64,000 nucleotides of DNA from contig CALUNL010000004.1 of assembly GCA_944322005.1 (NCBI GenBank), forward strand, positions 201,850-265,849. The letters are read 5' to 3'. Shown one piece after another: positions 1 through 29,175 of the stretch (its first letter is position 1; every line of letters begins with the position of its first letter). The DNA comes from an uncultured Alistipes sp. (lineage in GTDB: Bacteria > Bacteroidota > Bacteroidia > Bacteroidales > Rikenellaceae). The notes under the pieces are model-generated. The model searched no databases. It was not told the DNA's origin and saw nothing but the letters and a program-made list of their open reading frames with translations. The translations under genes were made by a program, and so were the position numbers.

Positions 1-1
1 C

Positions 2-337
2 GACTTCCTGTCCGACTCGTTCAAGTTCAACCGCAGCGCCGACGAGGGATACCTCATCGGACGCATGTTCATCAACCGCGAACGCTGCTTCTTCGTCGAG
101 GGCAAGCGGCAGACCTCCATGAAGGCCATGTGCTTCGGCAAGCAGGAGATTTCGCGCGAGGCGCTGGTCACGATACTCGAGACGGCCATCAACTACGCCA
201 TCAACTTCGACCTGCTCACACCGCCTTACGAGGACAACAAGCGCGTGACGGTCGAGCAGTTCAACACCAAGCTCGACAACTCGAAGTTCGTAACGGGCAA
301 GCGTCTGGGATACGACTTCAACGTCGACGACATCTGA
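2..337 (+). CDS. Conserved Bacteroidetes hypothetical protein, 5'-truncated at the window edge
   Basis: Open frame from position 2 (DFLSDSFKFNRSADEGYLIGRMFINRE...) to TGA at 335-337; codon usage like the neighbouring genes; function not recognised. Confidence 0.75.
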   Translation, partial: DFLSDSFKFNRSADEGYLIGRMFINRERCFFVEGKRQTSMKAMCFGKQEISREALVTILETAINYAINFDLLTPPYEDNKRVTVEQFNTKLDNSKFVTGKRLGYDFNVDDI

Positions 338-5373: not shown

Positions 5374-8300
5374 ATGGATAAAAAAGCCTTCAATCGTTGG
5401 AACCGAATCATAGGCTGGGCGGTATTTGCCGTGGCGGCCGTGACCTACCTTCTTACGATAGAGCCTTCGTCGAGCCTCTGGGACTGCTCGGAATTCATCG
5501 CCACCTCGTACAAGCTCGAGGTCGGCCATCCGCCGGGAGCCCCTCTGTTCATGCTCATGGCGCGAATAGCGACCATGCTGGCCCCTTCGACGCACTATGT
5601 GCCCCACATGGTCAACGCCATGAACGGAATAGCCAGCGCATTCACGATACTCTTCCTCTTCTGGACCGTGACACACCTTGCCCGCCGTCTGGAGGAGAAG
5701 CGCAGCGGCGAAATGACCACTGCAAAGGCCGTGGCAATACTCGGCGCAGGTGCAGTCGGCGCTCTCGCCTACACCTTCACCGACACGTTCTGGTTCTCAG
5801 CAGTCGAAGGAGAGGTCTATTCGCTCTCGTCGATGTTCACCGCCCTCGTGGTATGGCTCATGCTCAAGTGGGAAGAGCAGGCCGACTCGCCGCATGCACT
5901 GCGGTGGCTGGTGCTCATCTCATACCTCATGGGACTCTCCATAGGCGTGCACATCCTCAACCTGCTGTCGATTCCGGCACTGGCCTACATCTACTATTTC
6001 AAGAAGACCGACCGCGTGACACTCAAGGGATTCTGCATCGCCACGCTCGTCGCGCTCGTCATATTAGGAGTCATAAACGGCATAATAATCCCTTACACGG
6101 TATATGTCGGCATGCTCGTCGACGTATTCTTCGTCAATACGCTGTCGCTGCCGGTCAACACCGGAATCGTGGTGTTCGTATTCGCCATGTTCGCTGCACT
6201 CGGATATGCCGTATACTTCACCCACAAGCGCGGATATGTCATAGGCAACCTCATTGCGGTATCGGTGACGATGATCATGCTCGGATTCTCCTCATACGCC
6301 TCGGTTACGATACGCGCGTCGGTCAATCCGCCGATGAACAGCAACAATCCGGACAACCCGAGCGCACTGCTGTCGGTACTCAACCGCGACCAGTACGGAA
6401 ACCGCCCGCTGATATACGGTGCAGCCTACTCCGCGCCGATAGAGAGCTACACCGAACGCAGCCTCTACTACTACAACAAGAGCACGGGCAAATACGAGGA
6501 GAAGACAACCGTCGACGACTACGTCTACGACTCGAAGTTCATGTATCTGTTCCCTCGCATGTGGAACTACATCAAGTCGGAGCGCGACTACAAGCCATGG
6601 GCGGCATACCGCACAAAAACCGACTTCGTGCGTGACGAGGAGGGGAACATCATGCGCGACGAGACAGGGCGCCCGCTGCGTACGGAGGTGCTTGACTACG
6701 GCCGCAAGATACCGTACTATAACGGCGACCAGACCGTGACCATCACCTACCCTACATTCGGCGAGAACCTCAATTTCTTCCTCTCGTACCAGCTCAACTA
6801 CATGTACTGGCGCTATTTCCTCTGGAACTTCGTCGGGCGTCAGGACGACATACAGGCCTCGGACGTGACCATAACCAACGGCAACTGGCTCTCCGGCATA
6901 AAGGCCGTAGACAGCCTCTATCTCGGCCCGCAGACCAACCTGCCGCGTGAGATCGAGGAGAACCGCGCACGGAACACCTACTACTTCCTGCCGTTCCTGC
7001 TCGGAATCATCGGACTCATATACCAGCTCAACCGCGACCCGCGCAACTTCATCATCGTCATGAGCATCTTCATCATGATGGGTGTGGCGCTGGTGGTATA
7101 CTTCAACACGTCGCCAGGTGAGGTGCGCGAACGCGACTATGTATATGCCGGCTCGTTCTACGCCTTCTGCATGTGGATAGGATTCGGCGTGCTTGCCATG
7201 CGCGACCTTCTCGCCTACATGACCCGCAAGGCCCGCAAGTGCAACCACACCGCCACGGCTGCCGTCGCCACGGCCATCTGCATGGCCGTGCCGGGCATAC
7301 TCTGCGCCGAGAACTGGGACGACCACGACCGTTCGCACAGGACCATGGCCCGCGACATCGGGTACAACTATCTGGAGTCGGTAGTAAAGAAGGAGGGCGT
7401 CAGCCCGATAATCATCAACTACGGCGACAACGACACCTTCCCGCTCTGGTTCAACCAGGAGGTCGACGGCGTACGCACCGACATCCGAATAATGAACTCG
7501 AGCTATCTCGACGGCGAGTGGTATGTCGACGAGATGAAGTGCAAAGCCAACGACGCCGACGGAATACCTTTCTCCCTGCCGAGCGAGAAGTACACCTTCG
7601 TGAACGACCACCTGCCGGTGAACTCCAAGGTAGACCGCGCGGTCGACATCCGCGAGGTCATCGACTTCGTGCGCAGCGAAGATCCGATAACGAAGGTCGA
7701 CATCGGCTTCGACATGCTCTCGGATTACATCCCGACCAAACGTCTGGCACTGCCCGTGAACAAGGAGAACGCCATCGCATCCGGCATAGTCAAGGAGAGC
7801 GACCGCGACCTGATGGTCGACACGGTATACATCAACCTGCGCGGATCGTCGATCTCGCGTTCGGAGCTGATGCTGCTCGACATGCTCGCCCACTTCGACT
7901 GGAAACGGCCGATATACTTCACTCAGGTATACATCCTCCAGGACCTGGGACTGCTGGACTACCTGCAGTTCGACGGATACAGCTACCGTCTGGTGCCGAT
8001 ACTGACCCCGTACAAGAGTTCGTGGTCCATCGGCCGCATCGACGCCGACTACGCATACGACGTGCTGATGAACAAGATGCGCTACGGCAACATCAAGGAC
8101 CCGCGCGTATATGTCGATTACTTCACGCAGTACAACCTCATGGTCTCCCGTGCACGCGAGGCCTTCGCACGCGTGGCCAAGGAGTACATCAAGCTCGGTG
8201 ACAACGCCCGGGCGGAGGAGCTGCTCGACAGGGGTCTGCAGGAGCTTCCGGTAACGCAGCTTCGCTTCACCGAGGCCAACACCTATCCGTTCATCGAGTC

Positions 8301-25291: not shown

Positions 25292-26256
25292 CACTGTACG
25301 AGCAGATTGCACCCCCTGATGTCGCTTCCCGACAGACGTCCCTCGATACGGAAACCTCCGTCGGCAAATACCGTGCCCGCGTCCTGCGTCTGCAGGAAGG
25401 CGCACGACCATACGTTACCGAGGTCTATTATGTCGATTCCGCCCCGGCGTCCAGGCTCAAGTCGGGCGAACGGGTCGTTCACGTCGCGCGTCAGGACCTT
25501 CATCCACGGCGGGCAGTAGAACAGTCCGTTCCCGGAGGAGTAGGCCTGCGAGGTAAGTTCGGCCATGCCGTATTCGGAGTGTATCGACTCCACGCCGAAG
25601 GCCCCGCACAGCAGGGCGTGCAGCTCCTCTTTCGGCATCTCGCGCCGGCGGCCCTTCATCCCGCCGGTCTCCATGACTACGGTGCCTTCGGGAATCCCTA
25701 TGCCCCTCTCGGCCATGTCGAGCAACGCGTAGGTCACACCGAGCAGTATCTTCGGCTTGGCGTCGGCGGCCATGTCGGCGGCCAGGCGGTCGTAGTCGTC
25801 GAGATAGAACCCTCCGCTGCCGCACTCCCGAATCAGGCGGTCGGCCATGTATACGAGCGACGACCCCTTGCGCTGCAGGTAGTTCGGCAGGAGCGCATAG
25901 AGGCTCCAGCGCGACGGCTCGCCGTAGAAGCGCTCGAAACACGCGCGGAAGTCGCGCTCGTAGAGCGACAGGTCGGCCATCATGTGGTGCGAAGAGGTCA
26001 TTCCCGTAGTCGCACTCGACGTGAATACCGCCTGCGGAGGCTTTTCGCCGCAATATACGTCGTGCGTCTTGAACAGCTCTATAGGCAGCATCGGTATGTC
26101 TCCGCTGTGCCTCACCGACGACCTGTCGATGCCGAGAAGCTCCACGTAGCGGGCATAAGGGTCGCAGTGCCGGCTCTGGAAGTCGAACAGTTCCAACGCC
26201 GCACACTCGAAATCGGCATCCGAGCCTATTGAAAACATCCTGTCGACGATATCCAT
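25291..26256 (-). CDS. LuxE-like acyl-protein synthetase / acyl transferase
   Basis: FTSSATTG, LPNYL..GSSL, METGGMKG, SEYGMAEL, IDLGN and GRLSGSDIRGCN; TGA overlaps the licD ATG (TGATG); minus-strand promoter TAAATTTG at 26301-26308. Confidence 0.8.
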   Translation of the reverse strand: MDIVDRMFSIGSDADFECAALELFDFQSRHCDPYARYVELLGIDRSSVRHSGDIPMLPIELFKTHDVYCGEKPPQAVFTSSATTGMTSSHHMMADLSLYERDFRACFERFYGEPSRWSLYALLPNYLQRKGSSLVYMADRLIRECGSGGFYLDDYDRLAADMAADAKPKILLGVTYALLDMAERGIGIPEGTVVMETGGMKGRRREMPKEELHALLCGAFGVESIHSEYGMAELTSQAYSSGNGLFYCPPWMKVLTRDVNDPFARLEPGRRGGIDIIDLGNVWSCAFLQTQDAGTVFADGGFRIEGRLSGSDIRGCNLLVQ

Positions 26257-26349
26257 ATCAAAACCTGATGGGAGGCCGTTTACCTGCATGCGGCCGTACA
26301 CAAATTTAATCATAATTCGCGAGTTGACGTCGTATTGAGAAATTTTTTC

Positions 26350-26357
26350 TAACTTTG
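26350..26357 (+). promoter_or_regulatory. Bacteroidetes -7 promoter element for the accessory cassette
   Basis: TAACTTTG matches TAnnTTTG; predicted start site about 26363. Confidence 0.65.
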
Positions 26358-26362
26358 TACAG

Positions 26363-26610
26363 GCAACCAATGGAGTTGCTTACATATTGCATTCGCGAAA
26401 GCGTAAGTTCTGTCTTCCGGAAACGAAATCTGGTAAATTTCAAAAATGGCGAAGATAGGCATGATTCTTTCTGCGTCACGTCTCGTGGCGTGGGATTGTA
26501 TCCTATTTAGTCATAAAGGTTTACCAGAGCCTGTTTCCGTAAGTGGGATTTCAGTTCCACGCTTTCTTTATTGTGGTTACCCGTTCGGGGCTGGCGGGAC
26601 AACGACTCTC
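26363..26610 (+). ncRNA. Candidate structured leader RNA (multi-stem; family unassigned)
   Basis: Six nested complementary segments found by eye, e.g. GAAAGCGT/ACGCTTTC, TCTGGTAAA/TTTACCAGA and GCGTCACG/CGTGGCGT; no convincing ORF. Confidence 0.6.
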
Positions 26611-26618
26611 ATATAAAA

Positions 26619-27539
26619 ATGAAAAGATTTTTACTATCGATGTTTGCCGTCATCGCCTTGTGCGGAATGTCAGCTGCCCAGGACCTGATAATCCACCGAA
26701 ACGGCAACGAACAGCAGGTCAAGGTTCTGGAGGTATCATCCGATGAAGTGAAGTTCAAGAAGTGGTCTAACCAGAGCGGCCCGACCTACACAGTCCCGAC
26801 GGCCGACATATTCATGATTAAGTATTCGGACGGATCGAAAGACACCTTCGCCGAGAAGAAACCGCAGGAGAAGGAGAAACCGATATTCGCTCCGCAGAAC
26901 GTGACGAAGCCCGTGTTGGTAAAAAAAGAGAGGGATACGCGGTTCGAAATCGGAGCGAGAATCATGCCGACCCTGAGCATGTTGTTTCTTGACAACGGAT
27001 ATGAGCCTTCGACCGGCAGCGTAATAAAAGGGAGCAGCGGCATACGCTTCTTCGGCTCTGTGGGAGCCACCTTCGAGTACTATCTGTCGAAATACGAAAG
27101 CGGAAAATGGTTCCTGCACAGTGGGCTCGAATATGCCATGCGCGGAGGAGATTTAGGCATAGAGGGCGCGGACATAGTACGTACCGACTATCTAAATCTG
27201 GAAATTGGAGTCGGCGTGCGAGGCGGACTGATGTACTGGATTCCGGGATTCAGACTCGGCATACTGACAAACTCCAAAATGATTTATAAAGGTATAAAGA
27301 CCAACGAATATAAAAACAGCTGTCCGGTAACGTTCGAGTTTTTTGAACAGTTCGGATTCTGCATAGGCAAACATATAGACCTCGGATGGCACATGTCTGT
27401 CGTGCCGACGAACATCTTCAAGCCGGAGATTTGGAACGGGAACAACACGTCATGGAGCTACAATTTCGGCGTGATGTTCACATACCGGTTCAAGATAAAG
27501 AAGAATCCGCAAACCAGCCTGCAACAATCAACCCGATAA
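26619..27539 (+). CDS. Secreted hypothetical protein: conserved N-terminal module plus probable small outer-membrane beta-barrel
   Basis: Signal peptide MKRFLLSMFAVIALCGMSAAQD; alternating strands ending SYNFGVMFTYRF; lower GC. Confidence 0.8.
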   Translation: MKRFLLSMFAVIALCGMSAAQDLIIHRNGNEQQVKVLEVSSDEVKFKKWSNQSGPTYTVPTADIFMIKYSDGSKDTFAEKKPQEKEKPIFAPQNVTKPVLVKKERDTRFEIGARIMPTLSMLFLDNGYEPSTGSVIKGSSGIRFFGSVGATFEYYLSKYESGKWFLHSGLEYAMRGGDLGIEGADIVRTDYLNLEIGVGVRGGLMYWIPGFRLGILTNSKMIYKGIKTNEYKNSCPVTFEFFEQFGFCIGKHIDLGWHMSVVPTNIFKPEIWNGNNTSWSYNFGVMFTYRFKIKKNPQTSLQQSTR

Positions 27540-27551
27540 AGCAACAAAGAG

Positions 27552-28475
27552 ATGAAAAAAGCGATATTCTCAGCATTTCTCCTGTTTCTTGTCGGAAACG
27601 CCGCCGCACAGGATACGATACTGAAGCTCGACACCGAGGAGATTCAGGCGAAAATCGAGGAGATTTCACAGACAGAGATAAAATACCGCAGATGGAGCAA
27701 TCCCGACGGCCCGCTGTATACAGTCAAGACTTCCGAGGTCTTCCGCATAAGGTTCCAGAACGGAGACATGGAGGTATTCGGGAATAAGGAAGCCGACGTA
27801 ACGGAATCCGAATCGGGATCGGTGAACAAATATGCATACCGCATCGGCGACATCTACCAGGAGAACGGGTTGCTCGGCATAGTCGTCCACGTTACCGATG
27901 ACGGCCGGCATGGGCTGATAATGGCGCCACACGGAGTTGTCGGGCAGAAAGGCTCCAGGTTCAGGTTCAAGGACCAGATATGGTGTCACAAAAGCCTCGC
28001 AGACCAGTCAATAGGAGCCACAAGCCATGACGACGGAATGGAAAACATGCGGGCCGTAGGACGGGCAATAGAGGAGAACGGATTGGACTGGAACGATTTT
28101 CCGGCATTCAAGCGATGTCTCGAGTACGGCGACGGATGGTACCTGCCGGCCATAAATGAAGTCGAATATATTGTAAAGGCAGCCAACGGAGGAAAATCGA
28201 ATACCGAATGGGAGGAGTTCTACCTGAACGGGTTCAATTCCAGGATAGAGAGTATCGGAGGCACTCCGATGAAAATCGGAGAGAGCATCCTGTCTTCAAC
28301 GGAATGTTCGGACCATGATAAGGTTTTTATCTTTCTGTCAAAAGGAGAGATAAAGGTTCTGACTCTGTCAATATTCGATTTGATTCCGGACTATTATACG
28401 ATAAGTTCCGGTTACGCCTATAAAGAGGCAACGGGCAAAATGGGTTATGCCATCCGTCCCGTACACAAGTTCTGA
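27552..28475 (+). CDS. Secreted hypothetical protein: same N-terminal module plus DUF1566/Lcl-like C-terminal domain
   Basis: Signal peptide; YRIGDIY...GIVVHV..DGRHGL, WYLPAINE, SSTE and terminal IRPVHKF. Confidence 0.75.
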   Translation: MKKAIFSAFLLFLVGNAAAQDTILKLDTEEIQAKIEEISQTEIKYRRWSNPDGPLYTVKTSEVFRIRFQNGDMEVFGNKEADVTESESGSVNKYAYRIGDIYQENGLLGIVVHVTDDGRHGLIMAPHGVVGQKGSRFRFKDQIWCHKSLADQSIGATSHDDGMENMRAVGRAIEENGLDWNDFPAFKRCLEYGDGWYLPAINEVEYIVKAANGGKSNTEWEEFYLNGFNSRIESIGGTPMKIGESILSSTECSDHDKVFIFLSKGEIKVLTLSIFDLIPDYYTISSGYAYKEATGKMGYAIRPVHKF

Positions 28476-28506
28476 CACCACGGACTCCCTTTCCTCACCC
28501 CCCCCC

Positions 28507-28546
28507 AAAAAAAACAGCGGGGCCGGCAACAGATTGCCGGCCCCGC
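28507..28546 (-). terminator. Strong intrinsic terminator of thrS-infC
   Basis: 13-bp stem GCGGGGCCGGCAA/TTGCCGGCCCCGC at 28517-28546, with T8 on minus (A8 at 28507-28514). Confidence 0.88.
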
Positions 28547-28581
28547 ACAATTATGTAGAGCATCGCCCGTCGAAGCAGAGC

Positions 28582-29175
28582 CTATCCCTTCTTCGGCTTC
28601 GGAGCAAGTATCATGTTCATCTTCTTACCTTCGAGCGTAGGCATCATCTCAACCTTCGCAACCGCCTCCAGGTCGGTGGCAAAGCGGAGCAACAGTATCT
28701 CGCCCTGCTCCTTGAAGACGATGCTTCGTCCGCGGAAAAAGACATAGGCCTTCACCTTCGCGCCCTCCTTGAGGAAGTTCTCGGCATGGCGCAGCTTGAA
28801 GTTGTAGTCATGATCGTCGGTCTGCGGTCCGAAGCGTATCTCCTTGATCACGACCTTCGTCTGCTTGGCCTTTATCTCCTTCTGCTTCTTGCGCTGCTGG
28901 TAGAGGAACTTCTGATAGTCGACGATGCGGCATACTGGAGGCGTCGCGGTCGGAGATATCTCCACCAAATCCAGATCCATCTCGTCGGCCATAGCCAAAG
29001 CCCTGGCGATAGGCACCACGAGGTTGGGTTCGACATTGTCGCCGACAATGCGCACCGTCGGAGCCGTAATCTCGTTGTTGATGCGGTTCGGGTTCTCCTT
29101 CACCTTGCGAGGTCCCCGGTTCTGATTGTTCCCATGTCCCTGCGGGCGCGGTGGAAACGGTTTTAATCCTGCCAT
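28582..29175 (-). CDS. infC: Translation initiation factor IF-3
   Basis: RINNEI, DLVEISP...PPVCRI.DY.KFLY and [17 protein letters not shown]. Confidence 0.96.

Follow-up and report, generated by a model that had tools for sequence, protein, structure and literature searches.

Here, we describe a family of structured RNAs that combines two mutually exclusive folds with a pseudoknot and that sits at a constant position ahead of varied genes. The choice of fold, biased by some signal or factor, would decide between transcription termination and read-through, and modelled in this way the leader probably gates the expression of the genes behind it. The best overall explanation that we can offer is a cis-acting 5' leader that works as a bistable terminator/read-through gate with the pseudoknot as its latch, and our confidence in it is evenly balanced. 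Bacteroidota are dominant in the gut and in many microbiomes of the environment, and their genes for surface and defense functions turn over fast. If the explanation is true, one structured leader common to hundreds of unrelated genes of the accessory pool, in organisms as far apart as Alistipes, Flavobacterium and Fibrobacter, would amount to a control layer that has gone unrecognised. New here are the covarying pseudoknot that spans the U-tract, the conserved second fold, and the census of ORF position and cargo diversity.

A structured RNA between a promoter and a pair of accessory genes

The window is a stretch of 64,000 nucleotides from an uncultured Alistipes sp. (GenBank assembly GCA_944322005.1, contig CALUNL010000004.1, positions 201,850 to 265,849 of the forward strand). 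All the elements listed in a first-pass annotation lie in the gap between a LuxE-like gene and the ATG at 26619; the pairings, the promoter box at 26350-57 and the ATG itself are exactly where it had placed them. The features of the rod and its surroundings are:

start ~26313, minus strand: LuxE-like gene, divergent
26350..26357, plus strand: TAACTTTG, a Bacteroidota-type -7 promoter box (TAnnTTTG), read from the sequence
26363..26379, plus strand: 5' hairpin GCAACCAAUGGAGUUGC, optional, placed at the transcript start or close to it
26382..26388, plus strand: conserved ACAUAUU motif, 9-19 nt ahead of the rod
26397..26566, plus strand: rod (fold A), made of closing helix P1, covarying middle helices, c1:c2 and the apical hairpin S0:S2
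26397-404 with 26559-66, plus strand: closing helix P1, GAAAGCGT with ACGCTTTC; the rod is closed by GAAAGCGU/ACGCUUUC
26414-24 with 26533-43, plus strand: middle helix, CTTCCGGAAAC with GTTTCCGTAAG
26429-37 with 26520-28, plus strand: helix c1:c2, TCTGGTAAA with TTTACCAGA
26473-80 with 26484-91, plus strand: apical hairpin S0:S2, GCGTCACG/CGTGGCGT
26599..26618, plus strand: A-rich unstructured spacer that reaches the ATG, a probable ribosome landing site
26619-27539 and 27552-28475, plus strand: the cargo of the window, two genes for signal-peptide proteins with a shared N-terminal module

RNAfold returns for the plus strand of 26363-26618 the same rod pairings as the annotation, in a rod of about 170 nt with -85.4 kcal/mol. 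Dinucleotide shuffles of this strand reach -65.1+-4.8 kcal/mol and none of 200 is as good (z -4.27), while the minus strand folds with only -59.0 kcal/mol (z -1.76).

Homologues were gathered by BLAST and then by degenerate-pattern scans of genome contigs and viral contigs, and candidates were confirmed with R1, a covariance model of 11 sequences. The family comprises the 92 matches at E<=1e-5, aligned as A5; the window copy scores 141.7 bits under R1. By BLAST, 13 of 61 genomes are positive (the own genome included, hence 12 of 60 relatives), some of them with two copies, and the copy number per genome ranges from 0 to 3. The closest relatives of the window copy are Alistipes records. According to the record titles, the members include Alistipes (among them A. 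timonensis JC136), Paludibacteraceae, Prevotellaceae (Prevotella, and Paraprevotella clara YIT 11840), Muribaculaceae, Bacteroidaceae and Tannerella, and also Porphyromonas cangingivalis, Seramator and Sunxiuqinia. Cultured carriers are Alistipes timonensis DSM 25383 (L041), P. clara YIT 11840 (L051), Capnocytophaga sputigena NCTC 11653 (L206), Chryseobacterium piscicola DSM 21068 (L220) and Seramator thermalis (L070). The titles also name Flavobacterium, Chryseobacterium, Kordia and Capnocytophaga in the Flavobacteriia, as well as soil Bacteroidetes, Fibrobacter and one Ignavibacteria MAG. The family thus spans the Fibrobacterota-Bacteroidota-Ignavibacteria group of phyla. Of the pattern matches on viral contigs, 7 of 21 are true members, and BLAST of the element against phage and plasmid collections gave no match. 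A second, diverged copy lies about 70 kb away in the window's own assembly and is 83% identical over half the element. We rejected a MITE or dispersed repeat on this ground, since the own genome holds just these two copies and the family differs by compensatory changes.

The alignment supports the rod throughout its length. On A5, 89.1% of the cells in rod pairs are paired, compared with 66.0+-0.4% in shuffles and 40-50% when partners are slid by 1-3 columns; A5 was fitted to the rod model, and the slid-partner control, which has the equal bias, still collapses. Both sides have changed in 61 of the 70 rod pairs (A5), and the covariation score is 0.570 versus 0.07-0.08 with slid partners. P1 is paired to 95.5% and S0:S2 to 92.5% (A5), helix 7 reaches 98%, and several helices show all four Watson-Crick pair types. 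A naive covariation scan of all column pairs, in which one-sided C/U changes dominate, serves as a pointer only. Internal loops in the consensus rod are small (3-4 nt), a single 8-nt bulge lies beside P1, and the ends of the rod are conserved (AAAGCGU...ACGCUUU); in the 5' domain, the unpaired regions vary among members. Two U.G pairs are near-invariant, with UG in 86/92 and 60/92 sequences, and such pairs turn into A.C mismatches if the rod is read on the opposite strand. Scores of the reverse-strand model fall far below those of the forward model (26 vs 166 bits, for example). The structure is beyond chance and strand-specific, and the flagged stretch is almost certainly a real structured RNA.

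Of the 92 members, 66 have a strict TAnnTTTG box no more than 90 nt ahead of the rod, and 76 have its relaxed form. Between rod and ORF, a box of this type occurs in only 6/92. Members with the promoter 40-70 nt upstream carry the 5' hairpin, with stem sequences that differ yet stay complementary; it is missing where the promoter is 25-35 nt upstream. The motif ACATAWT precedes the rod by 8-19 nt in 32 members. With 92 homologues and strong covariation, the annotation's proposal of a functional RNA that is structured and has a promoter of its own (TAnnTTTG) is supported.

This RNA family is absent from the catalogues and the literature that we searched. The 64-kb window has no match in Rfam 15 at the gathering score, and 26250-26700 has none at E<=10, in line with the earlier remark that no known RNA core is present. 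Bacteroidales-2 had been named as the first model to test, and no Bacteroidales or Bacteroides motif held in Rfam 15 matched. In 12 homologous loci, the sole Rfam matches were a tmRNA and a TPP riboswitch, unrelated to the element and lying away from it, and for the Flavobacterium copy only chance-level matches (E>2) were obtained. Our literature search found no published description of this RNA.

A pseudoknot spans the U-tract

Three features at the 3' end of the rod and beyond it are needed here:

26551..26558, plus strand: 8-nt bulge UCAGUUCC in the 3' strand directly above P1, the 5' strand of the pseudoknot
26563..26572, plus strand: U-rich tract UUUCUUUAUU, whose first bases are paired within P1
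26580..26598, plus strand: P3' hairpin CCCG-UUCGGGGCUGG-CGGG, with the loop GGGGCUGG (26587-94) as the 3' strand of the pseudoknot

The bulge at 26551-58 is complementary to the P3' loop at 26587-94, and this pairing covaries over the family, as examples of bulge and loop demonstrate:

window: UCAGUUCC / GGGGCUGG
L162: UUUCAGCACC / GGUGCUGGGG
L044: UUCCGGCUCC / GGAGCCGGAG
L002: CAACUCC / GGAGUUG
L211: UGUCCC / GGGACA
L190: CAAACCC / GGGUUUG
L177: CAGUCUC / GAGACUG

The mean best-duplex score between bulge and loop is 14.73 for true partners and 11.97+-0.25 (maximum 12.56) for permuted ones. On a pairing-blind MAFFT alignment the pseudoknot helix is 82.8% paired (shuffles 71.3+-1.7, slid 31-52%), and RNAalifold finds it there unprompted; on an alignment from the sequence-only model R2 it is 85.5% paired. 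The two central pairs in R2 occur as UA 17, CG 13 and UG 11, and as CG 13, AU 11, UG 9 and UA 7. Counted from the base next to ACGC, bulge and loop can form an uninterrupted duplex of 6 bp or more in 42/92 members, against 12.5+-2.8 in permuted controls. About one third of the members are without a pseudoknot of 5 bp or more. In a Paludibacter-type subgroup the bulge reads AGUACC, no clear pseudoknot is seen and the ORFs are more than 100 nt away.

In 26 of 34 members, five or more contiguous pairs enclose the P3' loop, and the stem sequences are unrelated. The loop has the consensus UUnGGGACUG, with GAGGUGC in many Alistipes. Because the folding energy of the 42 nt past the U-tract is unexceptional (median z -0.35), the case for P3' rests on its covarying stems and its conserved loop. 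The order of P1 5' strand, bulge, P1 3' strand and P3' loop, with both helices supported, is that of an H-type pseudoknot. The element is a rod plus a pseudoknot in place of the three-way junction that had been proposed. The side hairpin GTGGGA/TTCCAC of that junction is not conserved; in relatives its bases belong to the 3' strand of a rod helix and to the pseudoknot bulge.

One strand of the pseudoknot lies past the U-tract, so the functional RNA must be transcribed through it, and a transcript that reads through the U-tract makes the RNA a 5' leader. A functional product ending near 26570, as anticipated in the annotation, does not agree with this covarying link between the rod and a hairpin past the U-tract; the RNA continues towards the ATG. 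We conclude that the element is very likely a co-transcribed leader of the downstream genes.

A second fold places a GC-rich stem before the U-tract

When RNAalifold was applied to the first 11 sequences, it returned a two-domain fold with S2 paired to S3 instead of the rod. The two segments are:

26487..26493, plus strand: S2 = GGCGUGG, partner of S0 in the rod or of S3 in fold B
26557..26563, plus strand: S3 = CCACGCU, common to P1 (ACGCU), the pseudoknot (CC) and the terminator stem of fold B

We traced this fold B by constrained folding with S2:S3 enforced, and 73 members gave a coherent structure in which both arms are paired internally. The 5' arm pairs S1 (AAAGCGU) with S0 and X with Y and has a local c1 hairpin (GAAAU...AUUUC) with the loop CUGGUAA; the 3' arm has a local c2 hairpin that shows the complementary loop UUACCAG, and Y' pairs with X'. 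The fold is closed by GGCGUGG:CCACGCU immediately 5' of the U-tract. At least 8 T among the 12 nt after ACGC are found in 79/92 members. The median energies are -50.9 kcal/mol for fold B vs -65.0 for the rod, and fold B is predicted to be metastable.

Fold B is less strongly supported than the rod: with pairing counted on the rod-fitted alignment A5, 75.4% is paired, compared with 69.3+-0.4 in shuffles (0/500 reach the observed value) and 38-48% with slid partners. Its best helices are the c1 hairpin (83.7%), the c2 hairpin (78-83%) and S2:S3 (88.7% paired); the c1 hairpin pair 60-74 is AU in 63 and GC in 18 sequences. S2 is near-invariant, and where S2:S3 varies, the variation is compensatory in several lineages:

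L022, L017 and L019: GGUGUGG:CCACACU
L016: GGCGCGG:CUGCGCU
L173, L177, L206 and L207: ..GUGA:UCAC..

In both L177 and L173, this bulge position has likewise changed together with the base it pairs with in the pseudoknot.

Exactly where the rod keeps its near-invariant U.G wobbles, fold B has Watson-Crick pairs (A-U, G-C). Read from the aligned sequences, this placement is the pattern that would be expected of a sequence selected for two folds. Mutually exclusive folds had been proposed in the annotation, and two conserved folds do exist; the competing pairs it put forward are not supported, the conserved alternative pairing being GGCGUGG (26487-93) with CCACGCU (26557-63) and not CTTAC/GTAAG. 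The locus has the layout of an intrinsic-terminator attenuator, with a GC-rich stem followed by a U-tract, a promoter upstream and an ORF downstream, and with a conserved alternative pairing that sequesters the terminator strand (ACGCU in P1, and S2 with S0). We lean towards fold B being functional.

The two folds can also be read without any switching. The rod, pseudoknot and hairpin would then form a constitutive 5' cap and fold B would be merely a co-transcriptional folding intermediate, the whole serving as a portable module that stabilises the mRNA against ribonucleases, insulates translation and keeps the ribosome site unpaired. The 5' hairpin located at the transcript start would suit such a cap, as would a compact pseudoknot that ends 15-25 nt before the ATG and a rod whose energy lies 14 kcal/mol below that of fold B; a conserved ligand pocket is not evident, and the extreme diversity of the cargo argues against a metabolite-specific signal. 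What a cap leaves unexplained is the U-tract right after CCACGCU that is kept in 79/92 members, the compensatory upkeep of S2:S3 complementarity and the position of the rod's U.G wobbles on Watson-Crick pairs of fold B. We regard the cap as unlikely. For the terminator/read-through switch itself, as laid out in the last section, we put our confidence a little short of even.

Downstream genes are diverse and differ at an orthologous locus

A same-strand ATG ORF starts at most 200 nt past the rod in 78 of 92 members, at a median distance of 45.5 nt, and in 57 of these 78 the distance is 25-90 nt. By a crude test, 53 of the 78 downstream ORFs begin with a signal-peptide-like sequence, 21 of them lipoprotein-like. 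A Pfam scan of 66 downstream proteins yielded 67 different families, each seen in at most 2 members. Among these are C5 and N6/N4 DNA methylases, DarT, RteC and HsdR N-terminal domains, and also BspA-type LRR, BACON, Bor, OMP beta-barrels, Trypsin_2 and T9SS sorting domains; small regulators are likewise among the cargo genes. The two cargo proteins of the window have no Pfam match. This census agrees with the earlier idea of a 'portable leader' with variable cargo, as the RNA recurs before very diverse accessory genes. The nearest upstream ORFs are as varied as the downstream ones, with no recurring gene and, by eye, mostly housekeeping functions; no recombinase was identified among them by eye. 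Most loci are chromosomal core contexts and not prophages.

The cargo differs at the orthologous locus of the relative G031. The RNA and both flanking genes, LuxE-like and infC, can be aligned there at 73-79% identity. Homology is lost immediately past P3', which speaks for a leader, and the intervening stretch of about 1 kb carries a bactofilin gene in place of the two genes of the window. tRNA and tmRNA genes act as insertion hot spots for genes, and the constancy of the RNA and both flanking core genes at G031 while the cargo differs would fit a hot spot of this kind beside a conserved RNA gene. The RNA would then be a stand-alone small RNA ending at the U-tract, a rod of about 200 nt that acts in trans or sequesters a protein. 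Its own promoter together with the hairpin and U-tract, the 0-3 copies per genome and the subgroup with distant ORFs and no detectable pseudoknot are in keeping with that. A stand-alone RNA does not account for the covariation of the bulge with a hairpin loop past the U-tract, nor for a same-strand ORF at a nearly fixed distance of about 45 nt with a promoter in between in only 6/92 members. Moreover, no integrase was seen by eye among the nearest upstream ORFs, the upstream neighbours vary too, and the locus L070 has a promoter-less mini copy inside an operon. We think this alternative quite unlikely and keep to the leader.

In L070, a truncated second copy flanks a four-gene block; almost all loci hold a single copy. 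Such a flanking copy would suit an element that acts at the DNA level, either an imperfect palindrome that serves as a single-stranded-DNA recombination or gene-capture site (compare integron attC/attI) or a miniature transposable element. The rod is indeed palindromic, if imperfectly, and its bulge is specific to one strand; the genes beside it vary and are often small like integron cassettes, and the G031 locus documents a cargo swap at an orthologous site. Against this, the promoter upstream and the ORF downstream are conserved in one orientation, and the conserved U.G pairs and the pseudoknot fit an RNA. The conserved ends (AAAGCGU...ACGCUUU) hold no RYYYAAC/GTTRRRY core sites, the nearest upstream ORFs show by eye neither a recurring gene nor an identified recombinase, loci mostly have one copy and no arrays, and the sequences diverge by compensatory changes where a mobile element would give near-identical repeats. 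A DNA-level role is therefore very improbable, and we continue with the leader reading.

Comparison with known systems

The element works like a terminator/antiterminator leader, yet it fails every catalogued family tested. Like riboswitch platforms, T-box leaders and protein-dependent attenuators, it sits between promoter and ORF and has four segments with two exclusive pairings (S1:S3 with S0:S2, or S1:S0 with S2:S3), one of which sets a GC-rich stem directly before a U-tract. Unlike these leaders, it has no recognisable aptamer or specifier, and its 'antiterminator' is a rod of about 85 bp over the whole element. Its pseudoknot has to await read-through, the genes behind it belong to no common pathway, and no Rfam model matches. 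With regard to riboswitches in particular, there is no obvious ligand pocket, almost all conserved bases are engaged in either fold or in the pseudoknot, and the genes do not form a coherent set (67 Pfam families in 66 proteins).

In ZTP (pfl motif) riboswitches, a pseudoknot bridges two subdomains over a variable linker. The element described here resembles them in a long-range pseudoknot over a variable linker that competes with an alternative helix for the same bases. Sequence and architecture are unrelated to ZTP and there is no Rfam match; here the linker is the U-tract, and the pseudoknot lies past the putative termination point.

A rod of about 180 nt with its own promoter is also the hallmark shared with 6S RNA, including the 6S-Flavo model of Rfam. 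In contrast to 6S RNA, the element is without a large central bubble or an Rfam match, it varies in copy number and in location, and it runs on into an mRNA. We rejected a 6S RNA given the missing bubble, its presence in 13/61 genomes and the variation of both neighbours.

Phage morons and the integron Pc-attI platform offer a parallel of another sort, as they too are self-contained, promoter-led units before unrelated accessory genes, with cargo replaced at a fixed site; the genes here code for lipoproteins (one of the Bor family), DNA methylases, DarT and small regulators, among others. They differ in that the common part here is a large structured RNA, with no integrase seen by eye among the nearest upstream ORFs and no attC-type core sites, and most loci are in chromosomal core contexts rather than in prophages. 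An integron attC/attI site was rejected given the missing core sites and arrays and the varied, by eye mostly housekeeping, nearest upstream ORFs. The rAID-1 arrays of Bacteroidales combine a XerD-type recombinase with repeated intergenic motifs (bioRxiv 10.1101/471110). This likeness was rejected as well, with no recombinase among the nearest upstream ORFs by eye and with single-copy loci.

A model for the leader

On the preferred reading, a terminator/read-through gate, transcription would start just past TAACTTTG and produce the 5' hairpin, the rod of about 170 nt, the U-tract and the small hairpin, and the transcript would run on into the cargo genes some 45 nt further. The decisive segment would be CCACGCU, which has three possible uses: its ACGCU can pair with the 5' end in P1, its CC with the P3' loop, and the whole of it with GGCGUGG in fold B. 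In fold B, a long hairpin whose GC-rich stem of 7 bp abuts the U-tract would act as a canonical intrinsic terminator, so that transcription would stop and the cargo would be off. In fold A, the arms would zip into the rod and ACGCU would be held by the 5' end in the weak, A-U-rich 8-bp P1, interrupted by the 8-nt bulge, and the polymerase would read on. The pseudoknot would become possible only after this read-through, when the P3' loop pairs with the bulge and would lock fold A in the full-length mRNA. Bacteroidota are a phylum without Shine-Dalgarno-led initiation, and the latched fold A would leave free the A-rich spacer of 15-25 nt before the ATG for ribosomes. Folding kinetics, a protein, temperature or polymerase speed could bias the choice between the folds; a metabolite specific to one pathway is disfavoured because the cargo is so extremely diverse. 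The device would be unusual among RNAs, with a rod of about 85 bp set against a two-hairpin terminator fold and with a pseudoknot latch that closes after read-through.

A broader reading, which we consider doubtful, is that the leader is a shared, phylum-wide control and docking module for the expression of acquired genes. One cellular signal or factor would flip the RNA and thereby co-regulate a flexible, mostly cell-surface gene pool, the candidate inputs being a protein (NusG-type or RNA-binding), the speed of the polymerase, or a cue from the envelope or from secretion, and the conserved leader would double as a platform for the exchange of cargo genes. If this were true, it would add a new class of RNA switch, one that acts globally on the accessory genome and is not tied to a metabolite pathway. 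The leader offers a testable handle on the expression of newly acquired genes in Bacteroidota, and it could serve as a portable expression or insulation part in the engineering of these bacteria.

In Alistipes, the stem of the rod (fold A) is also followed by six U, and fold A may terminate there too; that it would be leakier than fold B is a claim based only on stem composition.

Partial and variant copies of the leader

The genome that holds the window carries a second copy of the leader.

L002:1434-1612 (G000:C4, ~157.6-157.8 kb, outside the window), minus strand: second leader copy, same genome as the window copy

This copy shares 83% identity with the window copy across the 5' arm. In the middle of the 3' arm the match is gone and the c2 strand UUUACCAGA, which in the window (26520-26528) pairs with c1 (26429-26437), is absent, and thus the rod, the ~170-nt main fold, is broken. 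The score under R1, the covariance model built from 11 sequences, is only 49.5 bits. Retained are the closing helix P1, the bulge above it and the pseudoknot between this bulge and the loop of hairpin P3' (CAACUCC:GGAGUUG). The copy looks chimeric and may be half-converted or decaying.

Further departures from the single full-length leader were found at the following loci.

L070:6540-6632, Seramator thermalis: mini version of 60 nt with P1, basal helix, bulge, U-tract and P3' hairpin
L051:~1-179 (plus strand) and 6138-6308 (minus strand), Paraprevotella clara YIT 11840: two convergent leader copies, ~6 kb apart
L132, L153, L066, L115, L155, L219 and L198: Paludibacter-type loci, bulge AGUACC or AUGUCC

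The mini version has a full copy 2 kb upstream. Since it lacks the promoter box (TAnnTTTG), follows four small ORFs and lies immediately before another, the basal pseudoknot module may be able to act alone within an operon. Between the convergent copies of P. clara lies a TPP riboswitch (L051:1546-1638). The Paludibacter-type subgroup conserves a 5' hairpin (CAAUUG...CAAUUG), and no pseudoknot partner for the bulge was detectable across its seven loci. Its ORFs are more than 100 nt from the leader, two of them encoding restriction-enzyme HsdR_N proteins; these loci may represent a variant that either stands alone or is wired differently.

Cargo genes and genomic neighbourhoods

The two cargo proteins of the window (26619-27539 and 27552-28475) have a common N-terminal module of ~57 aa behind a signal peptide. 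The same module forms the N-terminus of the leader's cargo protein in a Muribaculaceae genome (L133), so leader and cargo type sometimes travel together. Further cargo types found more than once are proteins ending in a DUF5036-like C-terminus (L138, L176, L002) and a small lipoprotein (L199, L216). In three Prevotella- and Porphyromonadaceae-type loci (L052, L053, L127) a ~78-aa protein (MxxIGxxIK...WLARxL...) immediately follows the leader; it had no match in a Pfam scan and looks like a small helix-turn-helix regulator.

The window cargo adjoins infC.

28582-29175, minus strand: infC, inside region 28476-29175

The genes usually found after infC are rpmI-rplT. Here, along the infC strand, infC is followed by a terminator and then the cargo genes instead, an arrangement shared by the orthologous locus of a relative (G031).

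True family members also occur on seven viral or proviral IMG/VR contigs (L149, L152, L153, L155, L159, L161, L162), which may be phage DNA or pieces of a host genome, and in L155 an RteC-family gene lies behind the leader.
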